Shown one piece after another: positions 2,125 to 9,382 of a stretch of DNA of 9,382 nucleotides (positions are counted from its first letter, which is position 1; the number at the start of each line of letters is the position of its first letter). Below the pieces are notes generated by a model, which was not told the origin of the DNA, did no database searches, and was given only the letters and a program-made list of their open reading frames with translations. The position numbers were made by a program, and so were the translations under genes. This DNA comes from a virus (taxonomy: Duplodnaviria; Heunggongvirae; Uroviricota; Caudoviricetes). The DNA lies in IMG/VR virus record IMGVR_UViG_2740892235_000008, one strand, 5' to 3'.

Positions 2125-2612
2125 TAAGCCCCCACGTAATTCCCTGACAGATACCACTCTTCACCCGATACAGCGCGCTTGCTGCTTTTCCGTAAACACC
2201 GCTCACGACGCGCAAGAAAATTGTTTCGCTCTTGCTGGGAGTGGCTTTCACGGAATGCCGCCATCCACACCGTTGCAGCACGACGGTATAAGCCCCTGGA
2301 CTCCAGTTCTTCCGCCTGGCGGGTCAGGCACAAAATCACCCGGGGATCGTTAGTGCCGACATAGAAATTGCGCACAGGTCTGGATTCACGAACTGGTTGC
2401 GGTTCCGGCTCCTGCGGTATCTCAGTCAGCCGCGGGAAATGTCTGCGTGTATCCCCTTCACAACGGTGAGCCACACGCCCACTCTGACGTAACTTGCTTG
2501 CTGACTGCAGAACGCGCTGTCGTGAGTAACCTGCAAAAGCATCCGCAATGTCTCCGGAAGTACACCCCGGATGGGCTTCAATGAATTTCTGAACGTCATT
2601 CAAAAGACTCAT
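2124..2612 (-). CDS. PerC/ANR-family-like regulator with an additional N-terminal domain, about 162 aa
   Basis: ATG 2610-2612 preceded by AGGGGG with about 5 nt spacing (GTG at 2616-2618 is the alternative). C-terminal LESRGLYRRAATVWMAAF...RRERCL matches the remembered PerC/Pch signature (GLWRRAA..W...RR..CL). Stop overlaps the next ATG. Confidence 0.5.
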   Translation of the reverse strand: MSLLNDVQKFIEAHPGCTSGDIADAFAGYSRQRVLQSASKLRQSGRVAHRCEGDTRRHFPRLTEIPQEPEPQPVRESRPVRNFYVGTNDPRVILCLTRQAEELESRGLYRRAATVWMAAFRESHSQQERNNFLARRERCLRKSSKRAVSGEEWYLSGNYVGA

Positions 2613-2614
2613 GA

Positions 2615-3794
2615 TCACCCCCTGAATCCTGCCGGGATCTGGCTGTAGTCCACATTGTCGTAACTGGCTTTGAAGTACGGGTCTTCGCGTTTTTCTGTGT
2701 ACGTGCTGACGGACGGCGATAAGCGCAGGGAAAGCTCATCCCATTTTTCCCGCAGCTTCGACGGGCTGAGCACGTTNNNNNNNNNNATTTGAAGTACGGG
2801 TCTTCGCGTTTTTCGGTGTACGTGCTGACGGACGGCGATAAGCGCAGGGAAAGCTCATCCCATTTTTCCCGCAGCTTCGACGGGCTGAGCACGTTACGGC
2901 ACCAGAACGGATCGCGGCTGACGCGGCTGTACATCTCGCAGATTTGTTTATGAGTACGACCATCCTGCACACACATCAGGCGAATTTCGTTTGCCCAGGC
3001 TGTCCAGTTCGGTTCTTTGGGACGAACCACCTCGCCGTCACATTCGGCAGCCTGCTCGTACAGGGCGATGATTTTTTTCCAGAACCACTGTGCGCAGGTC
3101 AAATCATCCTGCGTCCCCCACTGGCGTTTTTTAGGGCTGAATACAACCGCATCAGGATGGCGAGTTAAAAAATCCTGTTCAGCCGTCTGCGTGTCCGGTT
3201 GCGAAGAGTCCGGACGAGAAGGTTTTTTATCTGACGGATCATGTTTTGATTTTACTGACGGATCCCCGCCAGATTCTGACGGGTGAAAACCCGCTTTTTT
3301 GCCAGATTTCGACGCATCAAATTTTGACGGGTCAGATTTTGATGCGTCAGATTTTGACGGGTCAGAATCTGACAGTTGAGAAAATGCCGCTGCCTGAAGC
3401 TTCGCAACGTTAAGCTGATAAACATTCGACGCATTGCGGTTACCCTGGCGACGCGCCTTACGCGTTAACCAGCCTTCTGCTTCCAGCCGTGCGATAGCCG
3501 TTCTGACGGTACTCATCCCCGCGCCAATCTGGCGTGCAATGGTTTCAATCGATGGCCAGCACACACCTTCGTCATTACTGAAATCAGCCAGGCGGGCCAT
3601 AATTGCCACGCTGGATAATTTCATGCCTGANNNNNNNNNNAGCCAATCTGACGGGCAATGGTTTCAATTGATGGCCAGCACACACCTTCGTCATTACTGA
3701 AATCAGCCAGGCGGGCCATAATTGCCACGCTGGATAATTTCATGCCTGACGCTGCGCAACCATCCCATACATAGCCGGTTAATTTAGTGCTCAT
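2615..3794 (-). CDS. phage replication initiator, O-like (N-terminal wHTH, Ser/Asp/Lys-rich repeat linker, C-terminal domain); spans two scaffold joins with duplicated flanks
   Basis: ATG 3792-3794 with GAGG Shine-Dalgarno 7 nt upstream; translation MSTKLTGYVWDGCAASGMKLSSVAIMARLADFSNDEGVCWPSIETIARQIG... In-frame through segment 2787-3630. True stop TGA at 2615-2617 found by hand translation (…DPYFKASYDNVDYSQIPAGFRG). The ORF-track frame after the 2777-2786 gap is an artefact. Real gene length is shorter than the coordinate span because 2672-2776 / 2789-2896 and 3520-3630 / 3641-3751 are duplicated overlaps. Confidence 0.6.
2777..2786. other. assembly gap (10 N)
   Basis: Run of n characters; about 105 bp either side are near-identical direct repeats. 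Confidence 0.95.
3224..3377. repeat. iteron-like tandem array (15-bp period; consensus CAGATTTTGACGNGT; 5 contiguous copies at 3303-3377 plus degenerate copies at 3224-3284); candidate replication origin inside the initiator gene
   Basis: Direct reading: cagatttcgacgcat / caaattttgacgggt / cagattttgatgcgt / cagattttgacgggt / cagaatctgacagtt, plus cagattctgacgggt at 3270-3284 and two CTGACGGATC-containing units at 3224-3265. They encode the SDxSK pentapeptide repeats of the linker. Lambda ori iterons lie inside O in the same way (established knowledge). Confidence 0.5.
3631..3640. other. assembly gap (10 N)
   Basis: Run of n characters; 3520-3630 and 3641-3751 are near-identical with 3 SNPs. 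Confidence 0.95.
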
Positions 3795-5040: not shown

Positions 5041-5733
5041 ATGAACATAGGAAACCGAGTCAGACAACTTCGCCAAGCGAAGAACATGAAAATCGCCGAT
5101 CTCGCTGAAGCGATAGGAGTAGATGCGGCGAACATCTCGCGCTTAGAAACGGGTAAGCAAAAACAATTTACCGAACAAACACTGAGTAATATTGCCAGGA
5201 GCTTAGGTGTTGATATTGCTGATCTCTTTACCTCTGCCCACAAAAGTAATACTGTATATAAAAACAGTAATAATGAGGATGTTGCGCAGGTGAAGGATGT
5301 GTTCCGTATTGAAATGCTGGATATCAGTGCCAGTGCGGGAAATGGCCTTATCCAGGGCGGTGATGTCATTGATGTGATTCATGCCATCGAATACAGAACT
5401 GATAATGCTGTATCAATGTTCGGCGGACGACCAGCCAATCACATCAAAGTTATCAACGTTCGTGGGGACAGTATGTGTCCAACCATTGAGCCCGGAGATC
5501 TCATCTTCGTTGATGTCAGCATCAATCAGTTTGATGGTGATGGTATATATGTCTTTGGTTTTGATGACAAAATATACGTTAAAAGACTTCAAATGATTCC
5601 TGACAAACTGCTGGTGATTTCTGATAACCAGATTTACCGTGAATGGGGAATTACTAGCGAAAACGAACACCGATTCATGGTCTTTGGAAAGGTCTTAATC
5701 AGTCAGTCGCAAACCCTTAAGAGACATAATTAA
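5041..5733 (+). CDS. cI: CI-like phage repressor (N-terminal XRE HTH, C-terminal S24/LexA-type autopeptidase), 230 aa
   Basis: Translation has HTH (VRQLRQAKNMKIADLAEAIGVDAANISRLETGK), a candidate Ala-Gly cleavage site (ASAGNG) and the S24 catalytic motifs GDSM … KRL. Stop TAA 5731-5733. Confidence 0.9.
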   Translation: MNIGNRVRQLRQAKNMKIADLAEAIGVDAANISRLETGKQKQFTEQTLSNIARSLGVDIADLFTSAHKSNTVYKNSNNEDVAQVKDVFRIEMLDISASAGNGLIQGGDVIDVIHAIEYRTDNAVSMFGGRPANHIKVINVRGDSMCPTIEPGDLIFVDVSINQFDGDGIYVFGFDDKIYVKRLQMIPDKLLVISDNQIYREWGITSENEHRFMVFGKVLISQSQTLKRHN

Positions 5734-5920: not shown

Positions 5921-5985
5921 AACGAACAGGCAGGACGCCCACGAAGTAGCCGCCGGTGGCGTATGAATGACCGGATGATTCGTTA
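5921..5985 (+). ncRNA. conserved 65-nt structured element, copy 1 (candidate cis-acting leader RNA, nut/put-like, or small RNA)
   Basis: Same 65-nt sequence as 8186-8250 except in a 20-nt core. Outer inverted repeat AACGAA…TTCGTT. Inner stem CCGGT(N12)ACCGG here versus CCTGG(N12)CCAGG in copy 2, i.e. two compensatory base-pair changes preserve the stem. Confidence 0.4.
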
Positions 5986-6009
5986 AATACTATGTGTAAG
6001 AGAGCGCAA

Positions 6010-6213
6010 ATGAACCGTTATTTCACATGCTCGTTTTGTGGCGCAAACGAGCTGCAGGCAAAAAAAATCATCGCCAAAGGCGGAAAAGATGAAGTTGCTA
6101 TCTGCTCTGAGTGCGTAGTCTTGTGTGTCGGGGCATTAATCAATAGCAGCACAACTATTCGGTTCACACCAAATGAGAATGCGCCTTTAGATGCGCGGAA
6201 ATCTGGAGGTTAA
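6010..6213 (+). CDS. small ClpX-type C4 zinc-finger (ClpX N-terminal ZBD-like) protein, about 67 aa
   Basis: Translation MNRYFTCSFCGANELQAKKIIAKGGKDEVAICSECVVLC… matches the remembered ClpX N-terminal zinc-binding signature ([33 protein letters not shown]). Purine-rich AAGAGAG 5 nt before ATG 6010; the ORF-track ATG at 5992 has no Shine-Dalgarno. Confidence 0.55.
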   Translation: MNRYFTCSFCGANELQAKKIIAKGGKDEVAICSECVVLCVGALINSSTTIRFTPNENAPLDARKSGG

Positions 6214-6689: not shown

Positions 6690-6803
6690 AAAGGATACCA
6701 CCGAGCCTGAAGTGGTGAAAAGACAGGCACATAACAGCTAAGTATTTTCAACCAGAGAGAATCCTTAGCGTTGTGGTGAATGCGGCTCAGCGCACGCGGG
6801 TTA
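6690..6803. repeat. conserved right-flank element, copy A (6725-6803 identical to 8930-9008; 6690-6724 similar with SNPs to 8896-8929)
   Basis: Direct comparison of the two stretches; copy A is truncated by the gap at 6804. Confidence 0.6.
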
Positions 6804-6813
6804 NNNNNNNNNN
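6804..6813. other. assembly gap (10 N)
   Basis: Run of n characters. Confidence 0.95.
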
Positions 6814-7128
6814 TTCCAGCAGGCGTTGGTTGATATCGGCGTTGTCCACATCCTCGACGTCAGGAAGAGACACAAAGACGCCATTTGCAGACTGCGCCAC
6901 TGCGTCAGCAATGAAGTGAGTTCCACCAGCACGTTGCAAAATCATTGCCCATCCCAGCGGGAAAATCTGATCGCCATCGGCACGAAGGCGGTTAAATAAT
7001 GCGTTCTCTGTTACATCCAGCCAGTCAGCTGCTTCAGCGTAACCACCCGGCAACTTTGCGATAGTTTTTCTGACAGCTTTCACGTACCACTCAGGCTGTT
7101 TTTCTACTTTCCAGTGATGCTTACCCAC
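6814..7128 (-). CDS. cII-like regulator, second copy, N-terminal part (3' end cut by gap)
   Basis: GTG 7126-7128 with GAGG Shine-Dalgarno 6 nt upstream; translation nearly identical to 4139-4690 (one A to K change seen). 6814-7128 repeats 4376-4690. Confidence 0.55.
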
Positions 7129-7463: not shown

Positions 7464-8090
7464 ATGGAAACGGTTGGTCAGCGTATAAAAGCTCTGAGAA
7501 GAGTTACCAGAACGTCCCAGAAAGAATTGGGTAAATTTTGTGGAGTAAGCGACGTTGCTGTGGGGTACTGGGAGAAAGACATCAATACCCCTGGCGGGGA
7601 GGCACTTTCGAAATTAGCGAAGTTCTTCAATACGTCAATAGATTACATTCTTTATGGTGCTGAGTTTGAAGGCAAACTCGTCACAAACATGCGCAGAGTT
7701 CCTGTAATATCGTGGGTTCAGGCTGGGCAGTTTACTGAGTGCAGGGCAGCAGAAGTGTTTAGTGAAGTGGACAAGTGGGTAGATACATCATTAAAGGTTG
7801 GTGATAACTCATTTGCATTAGAGGTTAAAGGTGACTCCATGACTAACCCTAATGGCCTCCCAACAATACCAGAAGGCGCAACAGTGATTGTAGATCCAGA
7901 TGCAGAACCTCGTCATGGAAAAATAGTCATCGCTCGACTTGATGGAACAAACGAAGCTACAGTAAAAAAATTAGTCATCGATGGCCCTCAAAAGTTTTTA
8001 GTGCCATTAAATCCTCGGTATCCCAACATCCCTATCAATGGTAATTGCCTTATCATTGGTGTAGTCAAAGGAGTTCAATACGAACTCTAA
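7464..8090 (+). CDS. cI: CI-like phage repressor 2 (HTH plus S24 autopeptidase), 208 aa
   Basis: Translation has HTH (IKALRRVTRTSQKELGKFCGVSDVAVGYWEKD) and the S24 motifs GDSM … KKL. Sequence is unrelated to cI-1 apart from fold-level motifs. Confidence 0.9.
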   Translation: METVGQRIKALRRVTRTSQKELGKFCGVSDVAVGYWEKDINTPGGEALSKLAKFFNTSIDYILYGAEFEGKLVTNMRRVPVISWVQAGQFTECRAAEVFSEVDKWVDTSLKVGDNSFALEVKGDSMTNPNGLPTIPEGATVIVDPDAEPRHGKIVIARLDGTNEATVKKLVIDGPQKFLVPLNPRYPNIPINGNCLIIGVVKGVQYEL

Positions 8091-8112
8091 GATCTCTCTT
8101 CTCTAACTAAGG

Positions 8113-8145
8113 CACCGAACTAAGAAAAGTTTGGTGTTTTCTCTT
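8113..8145 (+). terminator. rho-independent terminator downstream of cI-2
   Basis: CACCGAAC-(8-nt loop)-GTTTGGTG, an 8-bp stem with one G-U pair, followed by TTTTCTCTT. Confidence 0.55.
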
Positions 8146-8172
8146 GCCATGATAACTAAGTTAAGTTAGATT
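8144..8172 (+). promoter_or_regulatory. candidate OL/pL of module 2: -35 TTGCCA (8144-8149), 17-bp spacer containing operator CTAAGTTAAGTTAG (8156-8169), -10 TAGATT (8167-8172)
   Basis: The operator matches the module 2 OR dyad consensus; promoter hexamers read directly. Confidence 0.4.
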
Positions 8173-8185
8173 TTATATCAAAGAT

Positions 8186-8250
8186 AACGAACAGGCAGGA
8201 CGCCCACGAAGTAGCCGCCTGGGGCATATGAAGTCCAGGATGATTCGTTA
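8186..8250 (+). ncRNA. conserved 65-nt structured element, copy 2
   Basis: See copy 1; starts only about 6-8 nt after the predicted pL2 transcription start. Confidence 0.4.
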
Positions 8251-8254
8251 GCAA

Positions 8255-8279
8255 CAAAAAAGCGCCCTACAGGACGCTT
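8255..8279 (-). terminator. rho-independent terminator for the convergent cargo gene (possibly bidirectional)
   Basis: On the minus-strand RNA: AGCGUCC-UGUA-GGGCGCU (7-bp stem, one G-U) followed by UUUUUU. On the plus strand the same hairpin has one C-A mismatch. Confidence 0.65.
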
Positions 8280-8317
8280 AGCTCTTTAACAATCAGGATA
8301 TCCACAACAGTAGTAAT

Positions 8318-8809
8318 CTACAGATTGCCGTTAAGTTTTCTGGACAACTCCTCAATGGATGGAGGCGATACGTAATCCGGATTTTTATTCATCAGAAACT
8401 TATTTTCACAGTGGAGGCACCTGCTTTTATGAAAAAGCTCATCTTCGCTAACCGGGAATGGTTGAAGTATCGATACTATCTTTTGTCCAAAACATTTTGG
8501 GCAAAGATGCATGGTTATGCTGCCACCGTTCACGATTACCTCCTTCGAGTATACAAAAGTACCCGACTCAAGTTGGTTAAGGATATAGCCTTCCGTCTGA
8601 GCCTCAAAGTTTTCGAATTCTGCAATTTTAGCTTTGAGAGAAGCATTTATTTCTTGATAAGAGCCCACCAGTTCAACGAGAGACACGCATTCGCGCTGAA
8701 TAGACGCAAGCTTTGAGTTCAGCTCACCAATAGCCGCATTTACTTCAGCTTGAGTTTTTGCCTCGTTCATTAGTTTTGCAATCTGGGCTGTTTCACGAAT
8801 AGCCGTCAT
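8318..8809 (-). CDS. hypothetical cargo protein, about 163 aa: N-terminal predicted coiled coil, C-terminal CxxC…CxxC zinc-ribbon-like motif
   Basis: In-frame ATG 8807-8809 (MTAIRETAQIAKLMNEAKTQAEV…) is the first start downstream of the shared flank; the ORF-track start at 9097 would read through the shared flank. The Shine-Dalgarno is weak and a later ATG at 8768-8770 (MNEAK) is possible. C-terminal …HLCPKCFGQKIV…CLHCENKF…; stop 8318-8320; own terminator at 8255-8279. Confidence 0.5.
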   Translation of the reverse strand: MTAIRETAQIAKLMNEAKTQAEVNAAIGELNSKLASIQRECVSLVELVGSYQEINASLKAKIAEFENFEAQTEGYILNQLESGTFVYSKEVIVNGGSITMHLCPKCFGQKIVSILQPFPVSEDELFHKSRCLHCENKFLMNKNPDYVSPPSIEELSRKLNGNL

Positions 8810-8847
8810 TGCTGCCGTTAATTCAGCGATCACATTGAATACTCTTA

Positions 8848-8901
8848 TTGTTGTTGGGGATATCCAGATTAACCGAATCCTTGTTGTTGGGGAATAACCA
8901 G
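8848..8901. repeat. two about 20-bp direct repeats TTGTTGTTGGGGA(T/A)A(T/A)CCAG (8848-8867, 8881-8901) upstream of the cargo gene start
   Basis: Direct reading. Lies in the putative promoter region of the minus-strand gene, 33-bp period. Confidence 0.5.
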
Positions 8902-9008
8902 GTCCACCTCGCCTGATGTGGCTAAAAGCAGGCACATAACAGCTAAGTATTTTCAACCAGAGAGAATCCTTAGCGTTGTGGTGAATGCGGCTCAGCGCAC
9001 GCGGGTTA
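8896..9008. repeat. conserved right-flank element, copy B
   Basis: 8930-9008 identical to 6725-6803; preceding about 34 bp similar with SNPs. Confidence 0.6.
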
Positions 9009-9120
9009 AGGTTGAGGCTGACAGTCGACCTTCTGTGGATACCCACCCGCCTGGTGTGCAACCTTCGCCAGGCACCGGGAGGCACCCGGCACCACAACTT
9101 TATGCTGTGTGTAGTCCTGG

Positions 9121-9166
9121 CGGTACCAGTTTGTACCCTTGCTTCCGGCTGGTACCGTCCTTTTTT
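9121..9166 (+). terminator. large hairpin plus T-tract (CGGTACCAG-N19-CTGGTACCG then TCCTTTTTT); candidate plus-strand terminator
   Basis: 9-bp perfect inverted repeat followed by a T6 run. An allelic copy at 9258-9304 keeps the stem and carries a CTCTTTTT tract. Confidence 0.5.
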
Positions 9167-9247
9167 GCAAAACAGAGAAGAGCATCACCGGACGACGGGC
9201 TCATAACCCAATCCATCCGGGCGGCTGCCACCGCAGGTGTTCTTCTC

Positions 9248-9257
9248 NNNNNNNNNN
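9248..9257. other. assembly gap (10 N)
   Basis: Run of n characters; 9119-9247 and 9258-9382 are near-identical. Confidence 0.95.
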
Positions 9258-9382
9258 TGTACCAGTTTGTACCCTTGCTTCCGGCTGGTACCGCTCTTTT
9301 TACAAAACAGAGAAGAGCATCACCGGACGACGGGCTCATAACCCAATCCATCCGGGCGGCTGCCACCGCAGGTGTTCTTCTC

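Follow-up and report, generated by a model that had tools for sequence, protein, structure and literature searches.

How does the early-left (pL) operon of a lambdoid prophage that seems to have no antitermination protein N keep transcribing when the first gene in its path faces the opposite way? The question is raised by a 9,382-nucleotide (nt) stretch of DNA from a member of the Caudoviricetes (IMG/VR record IMGVR_UViG_2740892235_000008; the whole stretch is hereafter the window), in which positions 8144-8292 probably represent the head of such an operon. A predicted promoter is followed there by a structured leader RNA, a hairpin and a 12-mer resembling the boxA of ribosomal RNA (rrn) operons, with a convergent cargo gene beyond. 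Antitermination by BoxA and the Nus factors without N is established for ribosomal RNA, clustered regularly interspaced short palindromic repeat (CRISPR) arrays and suhB; to our knowledge, the boxA of lambdoid phages is normally discussed only within N-dependent nut sites. Judged by its pattern of conservation, the 12-mer is a genuine boxA under purifying selection and homologous to the boxA of nut and rrn sites, and we propose, with a probability of roughly 0.55, that it serves as an N-independent Nus loading site of the rrn/CRISPR type that guards pL transcripts from Rho. The coordinates given in an initial annotation of this DNA all proved correct, and the features on which the argument turns (aa, amino acids; ORF, open reading frame) are these:

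8144..8172, plus strand: predicted early-left promoter pL2, sigma-70-like, with -35 TTGCCA, 17 nt and -10 TAGATT; promoter scan 9/12
8186..8250, plus strand: leader RNA copy 2, reading AACGAACAGG...GATTCGTTA; 92.9 bits with covariance model R1 of the leader
8260..8279, minus strand: hairpin AAGCGCCCTACAGGACGCTT, from the terminator scan and folds
8281..8292, plus strand: boxA GCTCTTTAACAA, rrn type with CUUUA, one base after the hairpin; fits GYTCTTTAANA
8293..8303, no strand assigned: conserved flank TC(A/T)GGATATCCA, recurring 3' of boxA in many loci
8318..8833, minus strand: convergent cargo gene encoding 171 aa when read from the RefSeq start, in ORF 8318-9097; phrog_1244, E=9e-60

As the initial annotation had held, positions 8280-8292 (AGCTCTTTAACAA) are identical to the rrn boxA consensus TGCTCTTTAACAA at 12 of 13 positions, and 8281-8291 (GCTCTTTAACA) is moreover the sole match in the window to GYTCTTTAANA, a gamma-proteobacterial consensus drawn from functional E. 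coli BoxA elements (PMC5725501). As RNA the site reads GCUCUUUAACAA, and the candidate target RNA of NusB-NusE is CUUAGCUCUUUAACAAUCAGG. Matches to GYTCTTTAANA are expected 0.07 times per window by chance, and 14 of 200 shuffles contained at least one, to be set against the one observed; for the 13-mer with up to two mismatches the expectation is 0.32 per window. Comparison across loci excludes chance: non-redundant loci bearing the same leader, 1.18 Mb in all, contain 26 consensus matches, of which 21 fall 60-300 nt after the leader on the same strand, where the background rate predicts about 0.06.

The initial annotation had made its reading depend on conservation of the 12-mer in related prophages. 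It is conserved both in 21 distinct variants of the block and in the 1114 complete E. coli genomes that carry the composite. Within the 21 variants the 11-mer changes only at the N of the consensus (C or A), amid free variation in the loop sequence, the single spacer base (A, C, T or none), the length of the A-tract and the downstream DNA. Further variants come from Scandinavium, Enterobacter, Atlantibacter, Buttiauxella and Kosakonia; one of the additional forms, GCTCTTTAAGA, again differs only at N, and a Pseudescherichia variant has G at that position. Many other phage contigs have an extended motif, GCTCTTTAACAATC(T/A)GG, at the head of classical boxA-boxB nut sites and of promoter-proximal leaders. 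A palindrome, GGATATCC (8295-8302; often TGGATATCCA), was also observed right after boxA despite differing upstream leaders and downstream cargo.

What stays constant at a mosaic joint in these comparisons is the boxA. SfIV, 689R6 and PhiR29_1 have the block in identical form, and past it SfIV and 689R6 run into a co-directional 68-aa ORF, the window and PhiR29_1 into a convergent gene; the window and SfIV share their DNA up to boxA+5 and then diverge, and the loci L143 and L222 combine the same boxA and cargo with another upstream hairpin and sequence. Such breakpoints right at boxA, together with four loci (L314, L303, L313 and L186) whose leader directly precedes a classical nutL and N-like genes, are what one might expect of a relic, that is, the boxA of an ancestral nutL whose boxB and N gave way to cargo, functionless here and persisting from youth or as a shared stretch for lambdoid recombination. 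We consider a relic unlikely, though conceivable as history, as decay would be expected of it, yet the 11-mer has stayed intact in all these variants and in several genera among diverged loops, spacers and flanks, and its sole change falls on the degenerate position of the consensus.

The association of leader and boxA extends beyond the arrangement seen in the window. In Xenorhabdus (L314, L303, L313) and Kluyvera (L291), boxA follows the same leader without the terminator hairpin, starting from 4 nt (L314) to about 45 nt after the closing helix P1 of the leader among the three Xenorhabdus loci. In L314, L303 and L186 boxA is succeeded by a hairpin and an N-like gene of phrog_271 (E=3e-6, 1.4e-4 and 4e-7, respectively); in L186, an IMG/VR locus, this nutL lies about 360 nt downstream of the leader, after a 103-aa ORF. 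L313 has boxA, a boxB with a GAAAA loop and then an insertion, and a more distant N-like ORF is detected there by phmmer only. Because leader and boxA occur together without the hairpin in these other genera, we take boxA to be a plus-strand signal homologous to the boxA of nutL. L186 also carries a hairpin-boxA-boxB nutR directly after cro. The 7-mer GCTCTTA was tried as a test for lambda-type nutR and nutL and dropped, its occurrence being at chance level and thus uninformative.

What, then, is the hairpin that precedes boxA in the window? The initial annotation had noted the rrn-type order of hairpin and boxA; a role of the hairpin as a boxB-like partner is not supported. On the minus strand it forms an 8-bp stem (five G-C pairs, one G.U wobble) of -11.5 kcal/mol followed by U6, whereas on the plus strand it contains a C.A mismatch, reaches -7.5 kcal/mol and has the tail UUAGCUCUUU. 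Since the minus-strand form is the more stable in 21 of 21 block variants (mean -11.5 versus -7.2 kcal/mol) and U6 is found only there, the hairpin is chiefly the terminator of the convergent cargo gene; on that strand it shows the GC-rich stem and U-run of an intrinsic terminator and lies 3' of the cargo stop codon. It is primarily an intrinsic terminator of whatever convergent cargo gene lies downstream and not a demonstrable boxB analogue, and in such an arrangement it should shield pL and cI from antisense transcripts. The order of hairpin and boxA did stand and recurs in unrelated phage contigs, where a hairpin of -6 kcal/mol or lower ends 0-4 nt 5' of the boxA motif in 41 of 109 phage contexts versus 8 of 109 shuffled controls. 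No GU-rich, boxC-like element is visible in 8293-8330.

Placement relative to the cargo gene follows a pattern. The initial annotation had located the signal where pL transcription enters a convergent gene, and a convergent ORF of at least 80 codons does stop 5-235 nt past boxA in 20 of the 21 variants. When ORFs in leader-bearing loci are called heuristically, boxA is confined to those with a convergent ORF after it, 14 of 31, and is seen in none of 60 co-directional loci. For boxA-like motifs of all kinds in viral contigs, convergent ORFs follow in 25 of 98 cases versus 61 of 490, an approximately two-fold difference that, coming from a noisy sample, is given little weight.

The same geometry suggests a function on the other strand, where the complement of the site, UUGUUAAAGAGC, would belong to a module at the 3' end of the cargo mRNA and might serve either as an element upstream of the terminator or as seed for a small RNA (sRNA) derived from the 3' untranslated region (UTR) and complementary to the boxA of rrn leaders or of the nut sites of superinfecting phages. 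The canonical terminator exists on the minus strand only, in 20 of 21 variants the 12-mer sits just 5' of it, inside the 3' UTR of the cargo, and the module is constant while the cargo genes differ. Set against this are the loci in which boxA follows the leader with neither a convergent gene nor a terminator (L314, L303, L313 and L291), the identical extended motif in promoter-proximal position on the sense strand of many phages, and the coincidence of the one variable site with the degenerate position of the boxA consensus. We therefore think a minus-strand function improbable, although the cargo 3' UTR, with its exact boxA complement, could act as an anti-boxA RNA; this is less likely than antitermination by the leader, which is taken up below.

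The natural context of the site helps to define the operon. The window contains two lambdoid immunity modules, with plus-strand cI-type repressor genes at 5041-5733 and 7464-8090, each accompanied by a divergent cro-like gene. The second module, to which the boxA belongs, has its match in a DLP12-like prophage that strains such as E. coli RM10466 carry at tRNA-Arg, where the order is cro on the minus strand, cI on the plus strand, the leader element, and then a 171-aa hypothetical gene on the minus strand. In the RM10466 annotation this cargo gene is 516 nt long (its stop codon is at 8318-8320 of the window) and the repressor is a "LexA family protein". Beyond the cargo, the plus strand of RM10466 carries a frameshifted ORF, yfdP, yfdQ, yfdR, yfdT, an excisionase-like fragment and intD; because of this gene order, the plus strand after cI is taken as the early-left operon. 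The module would thus correspond to a left arm of the DLP12/SfIV/ST64B type, with cro pointing left, cI and pL pointing right, and yfdP, yfdQ, yfdR and eventually xis and int further along. About 1 kb separates boxA from yfdP, and no credible translated plus-strand gene occupies it.

This left operon appears to lack N. No N gene is annotated in the left operon of RM10466, PHROG scans of five representative phages found no N-like protein among the first genes after the leader, and an N-like ORF was present in none of 32 loci of the window's architecture versus 4 of 6 loci with boxA and no A-run hairpin, with the proviso that N proteins are diverse and distant forms may escape such screens. Nor is there a boxB 3' of boxA, where a lambda-type site, read by N, has its stem-loop within a few to about 15 nt: the best downstream hairpin found for the block reaches -2.7 kcal/mol (L003), and the sequence after boxA differs among homologues. 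A second boxA, as of a nutR, is absent from the pR operon of the window with two mismatches allowed. Lacking boxB, an N-like ORF and a second boxA, the window does not hold a lambda-type nut site. A common partner protein of another kind was considered and rejected, the first genes after the leader being mutually unrelated and not N-like.

We posit the following course of events. On loss of the repressor, transcription would start at the predicted site near 8179 and yield first the 65-nt, three-helix leader RNA; the polymerase would then cross the hairpin, a weak terminator on this strand whose main job is on the other, and the transcript would present boxA in its RNA form. NusB-NusE (S10), with NusA, NusG and SuhB, would load at 8281-8292 without phage N, and the elongation complex thus equipped would become resistant to Rho, as at rrn leaders, CRISPR arrays and suhB. 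The complex would need this resistance because no translation covers the following 0.7-1 kb of pL RNA, which comprises first the antisense of the cargo gene and then a stretch resembling the STnc100 RNA. To overcome Rho-dependent terminators, the rrn boxA requires a few flanking bases but neither N nor boxB (PMC2724277), and BoxA guards long untranslated CRISPR transcripts from Rho (PMC7665894).

Several observations weigh against this proposal. The promoter pL2, predicted as the early promoter, scores only 9/12 in the scan; the 21 block variants are related by descent, so that counts based on them overstate their independence; and boxA is not obligatory for operons of this type, being absent after the leader in 143 of 181 loci, which also means that the leader needs no boxA. 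By the heuristic ORF call, 17 loci were scored as convergent and have no boxA. As boxA always lies within the 3' UTR of the convergent gene, a role on the minus strand keeps a small probability. Further downstream, at about 9119-9168, stands a strong plus-strand intrinsic terminator that rrn-type complexes are not expected to pass, since they do not suppress intrinsic terminators (PMC2724277); passage would need another activity, for which, speculatively, the leader RNA is a candidate. Finally, the BoxA of suhB acts negatively, repression running through Rho (PMC5725501). By analogy with this documented case, Nus binding in the window might block translation or promote Rho action and so keep pL read-through into the cargo antisense low. 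We hold such a negative boxA very improbable, because no start codon or ribosome-binding site lies within reach in the window and the left-operon genes downstream, xis and int included, must be expressed on induction.

The leader RNA deserves attention in its own right. The initial annotation had called 8186-8250 the second copy of a structured element lying a few nucleotides after the predicted start of pL2; it does repeat 5921-5985 in direct orientation, with 89% identity, and the start is predicted near 8179-8180, about 7 nt ahead of its first helix. Differences between the copies are compensatory in one stem (CCGGT/ACCGG versus CCTGG/CCAGG). An alignment of 75 sequences gives a three-helix consensus in which P1 closes a three-way junction, and searches were made with the covariance model R1. 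The parts of copy 2, on the plus strand, are these:

8187-8191 with 8244-8248, plus strand: helix P1 of the consensus fold
8194-8196 with 8202-8204, plus strand: helix P2 of the consensus fold
8218-8222 with 8235-8239, plus strand: helix P3 of the consensus fold, with the conserved loop GGCAUAUGAA
8193-8219, plus strand: conserved core, from the alignment
8240-8243, plus strand: conserved junction AUGA, from the alignment

P1 and P3 covary strongly, with 95.8% of cells paired versus 22-43% when the partners are slid; ten base pairs of the leader show changes on both sides, and none of 500 shuffles reached the covariation score. P2, invariant in the alignment, is backed by variants of the core, namely a C-to-U change giving a G.U pair (L153) and a loop of 7 nt instead of 5 nt (L186, L206). 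The three-helix structure is real. At the level of sequence, conservation covers the core of 27 nt, the AUGA junction and, in P3, the loop GGCAUAYGAA, and since the core is invariant across the Enterobacterales while the helices covary, the pattern points to a conserved host partner.

The leader is widespread. BLAST searches of phage genomes recovered it in SfII, SfIV, SfV, ST64B, phiNP, ZF40, YeP1-3, AH07, SPN3UB, SEN34 and others, unannotated throughout and, in each phage examined, 100-170 nt past cI, in the orientation of that gene and at the start of the left operon; every locus inspected has a sigma-70 promoter of the TTGAC-17-TAnnnT type 5-25 nt upstream of it. An exact search with a 23-nt core found it in at least 120 viral contigs, and a slightly degenerate core in 114 species-representative genomes; the genera bearing the core include Escherichia, Klebsiella, Enterobacter, Citrobacter, Kosakonia, Serratia, Yersinia, Pantoea, Sodalis, Photorhabdus and Xenorhabdus. 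Exact core matches were also seen in records from outside the Enterobacterales (L267, Chryseobacterium sp.; L271, Delftia; L280 and L293, Pseudomonas), which could be contamination or a genuinely wider host range. Among complete E. coli genomes, 1843 of 5426 carry the leader. The e14 prophage of K-12 has an unannotated copy between ymfK (cohE) and ymfJ (L234, 2496-2576), without hairpin or boxA, which makes a handy experimental model, as the function of the leader can be tested in standard strains (nus and rpoC mutants, bicyclomycin). Rfam 15 gave no match at E<=1 over 8186-8250 or 5921-5985 and none at E<=0.01 in natural loci; in the literature, the core sequence of the leader was not found, nor was "put-like" found used together with prophage antitermination.

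Its position recalls the put RNAs, since putL lies a few nt after pL (PMC9378689), and we had to ask whether the leader is itself a processive antiterminator that binds RNA polymerase as an analogue of HK022 put, with boxA auxiliary or dispensable. The putL-like position, the invariant core with covarying helices suggestive of a conserved host target, the many carriers that lack both N and boxA, and the downstream intrinsic terminator that boxA complexes should not pass all agree with this. Identity with HK022 put was nevertheless rejected, as BLAST gave no match and R1 none at putL or putR of HK022 or at the putL-like RNA of HK639; because R1 fails to detect any of these, the leader is not a member of the put family, and no relation to them in sequence or structure is apparent. 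The strings that leader and HK022 put have in common (ACGAAC, CAGGATGA) sit in non-equivalent structural positions. There is furthermore no second, putR-like copy in the pR operon, R1 finding one copy per immunity region in the window and in nine related loci, and the leader occurs alongside complete N/nut systems in at least four loci and therefore is not simply a replacement for N. We accordingly consider this form of the idea quite unlikely; the element is neither HK022 put nor the boxB of a nut site. In a more general form we put forward, tentatively and with much more doubt than belief, that the leader belongs to an undescribed class that may bind host machinery (RNA polymerase or the Nus complex) and, alone or with boxA, give N-independent processive antitermination, replacing N-boxB and distinct from HK022 put. 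If true, this would mean an RNA substitute for N-boxB in about a third of E. coli genomes.

A reading of leader plus hairpin as a terminated sRNA was tried and rejected, since the leader mostly runs into a ribosome-binding site and ORF without any hairpin, and the plus-strand hairpin in the window has no proper U-tract. Some further observations concern the leader and its surroundings. The string CAGGACGC stands in its core (8196-8203) and recurs at 8271-8278, within the 3' arm of the hairpin that adjoins boxA, and the pL transcript of lambda has GCAGGACGC at +5 to +13, shortly before nutL (L235, 1540-1592, minus strand); such common strings may be a shared determinant or chance. The best R1 match in 5 kb of lambda is likewise the pL leader, at a non-significant 8.1 bits (E=1.3), and is a lead only. 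In L007, L013, L040 and many other viral loci the leader is followed, at a distance of about 60-130 nt and just ahead of the first ORF, by another conserved stretch of non-coding sequence; this motif, present also in Salmonella phage SPN3UB, consists of GCGCAGCAGGU..AACGUUCCGC and a covarying hairpin (CGCUGGCCGGCG / CGCCAGCCUGGCG / CGUCGGCCAGACG). In the right-operon region of ST64B (L006, 242-430, minus strand), a C4 antisense RNA (79.7 bits) and isrK (64.3 bits) stand side by side.

The remaining annotated features of the window are as follows:

7464..8090, plus strand: module 2 repressor gene, cI-type (LexA/S24 family); phrog_4 transcriptional repressor, E=1.7e-55 (PHROG)
8109..8140, plus strand: hairpin of the repressor-gene terminator, a 13-bp stem followed by UUUUCUCUU, with its U-tract extending to 8149
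5921..5985, plus strand: leader RNA copy 1 (module 1), 93.7 bits with R1
8945..9168, plus strand: STnc100-like untranslated RNA between pL2 and yfdP; Rfam RF02076, 40.3 bits against a gathering score of 47

The repressor terminator (8100-8150) folds at -15.1 kcal/mol (z=-3.3); its U-tract runs into the -35 hexamer of the predicted pL2, and the palindrome TAACTAAGTTA lies between the hexamers of that promoter. After copy 2 of the leader, AGCAAC and a run of six A (8256-8261) lead to the hairpin. After copy 1 a co-directional ORF begins at once, with neither hairpin nor boxA. This first gene of module 1 (5992-6213, plus strand) encodes a 73-aa protein of phrog_5259 with a ClpX-zinc-finger-like TCSFCGA motif, and phrog_5259 homologues are the first gene 3' of the leader in several other loci. 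The 3' end of the STnc100-like RNA is the strong intrinsic terminator mentioned above (-23.3 kcal/mol, then U6); the same sub-threshold match is found upstream of yfdP in natural prophages and in ST64B, and a partial copy of the stretch is present at 6719-6803.

The window as a whole looks chimeric or rearranged, its two immunity modules apparently joined at about 6803-6815, and no one place in any complete E. coli genome is colinear with 80% or more of it. It has many near-identical internal duplications (4377-4676/6815-7114, 1152-1451/1656-1955, 2669-2895, 3523-3749, 9123-9382 and 6719-6803/8924-9008), among them a 135-nt tandem copy at its 3' end. Inside the O-like replication gene (ORF 2596-3624, minus strand), four iterons resembling CAGATTTTGACGGGT with 15-nt spacing at 3303-3377 are likely to be a lambdoid origin of replication; the same stretch drew a spurious Rfam match to mir-5880.

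Taken together, these findings describe what appears to be a selected, consensus boxA in the left operons of prophages that seem to lack N, where early transcription meets, antisense, a cargo gene expressed in the lysogen. They suggest how phages tolerate convergent moron insertions between pL and the genes for recombination and excision, and they uncover, at the 5' end of pL transcripts, a structured RNA that is very common yet has gone unannotated.

Among known systems, the site has most in common with the rrn antiterminator, the CRISPR leaders and the suhB 5' UTR, with which it shares an rrn-type boxA (CUUUA), a hairpin directly 5' of boxA, the absence of a phage N and long untranslated RNA downstream in need of protection from Rho. 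However, where the rrn arrangement has boxB hairpin, boxA and boxC, the present hairpin is an intrinsic terminator of the minus strand, no boxC-like element is seen, and the site belongs to a repressor-controlled prophage operon, after a separate conserved structured RNA. Lambda nut sites resemble it in lying about 100 nt into the pL leader and in the boxA with its 3' flank (AATCTGG), common to bona fide nut sites, and the same leader precedes a classical nutL in Xenorhabdus prophages. The put RNAs of HK022 and HK639 are processive antiterminators made of RNA only, that of HK022 acting through the beta-prime zinc-binding domain with no help from protein factors; they are comparable as structured RNAs of about 65-70 nt, a few nt after pL, in phages mostly without N. 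Where put has two independent stems, the leader folds into a three-way junction that P1 closes; it also occurs in a single copy per phage and is able to coexist with N. Lastly, the GC-rich 8-bp stem flanked by an A-tract and a U-rich side and lying between convergent units is that of a bidirectional terminator of convergent genes, from which it differs in that its U-rich tail on the plus strand doubles as the start of the conserved boxA.

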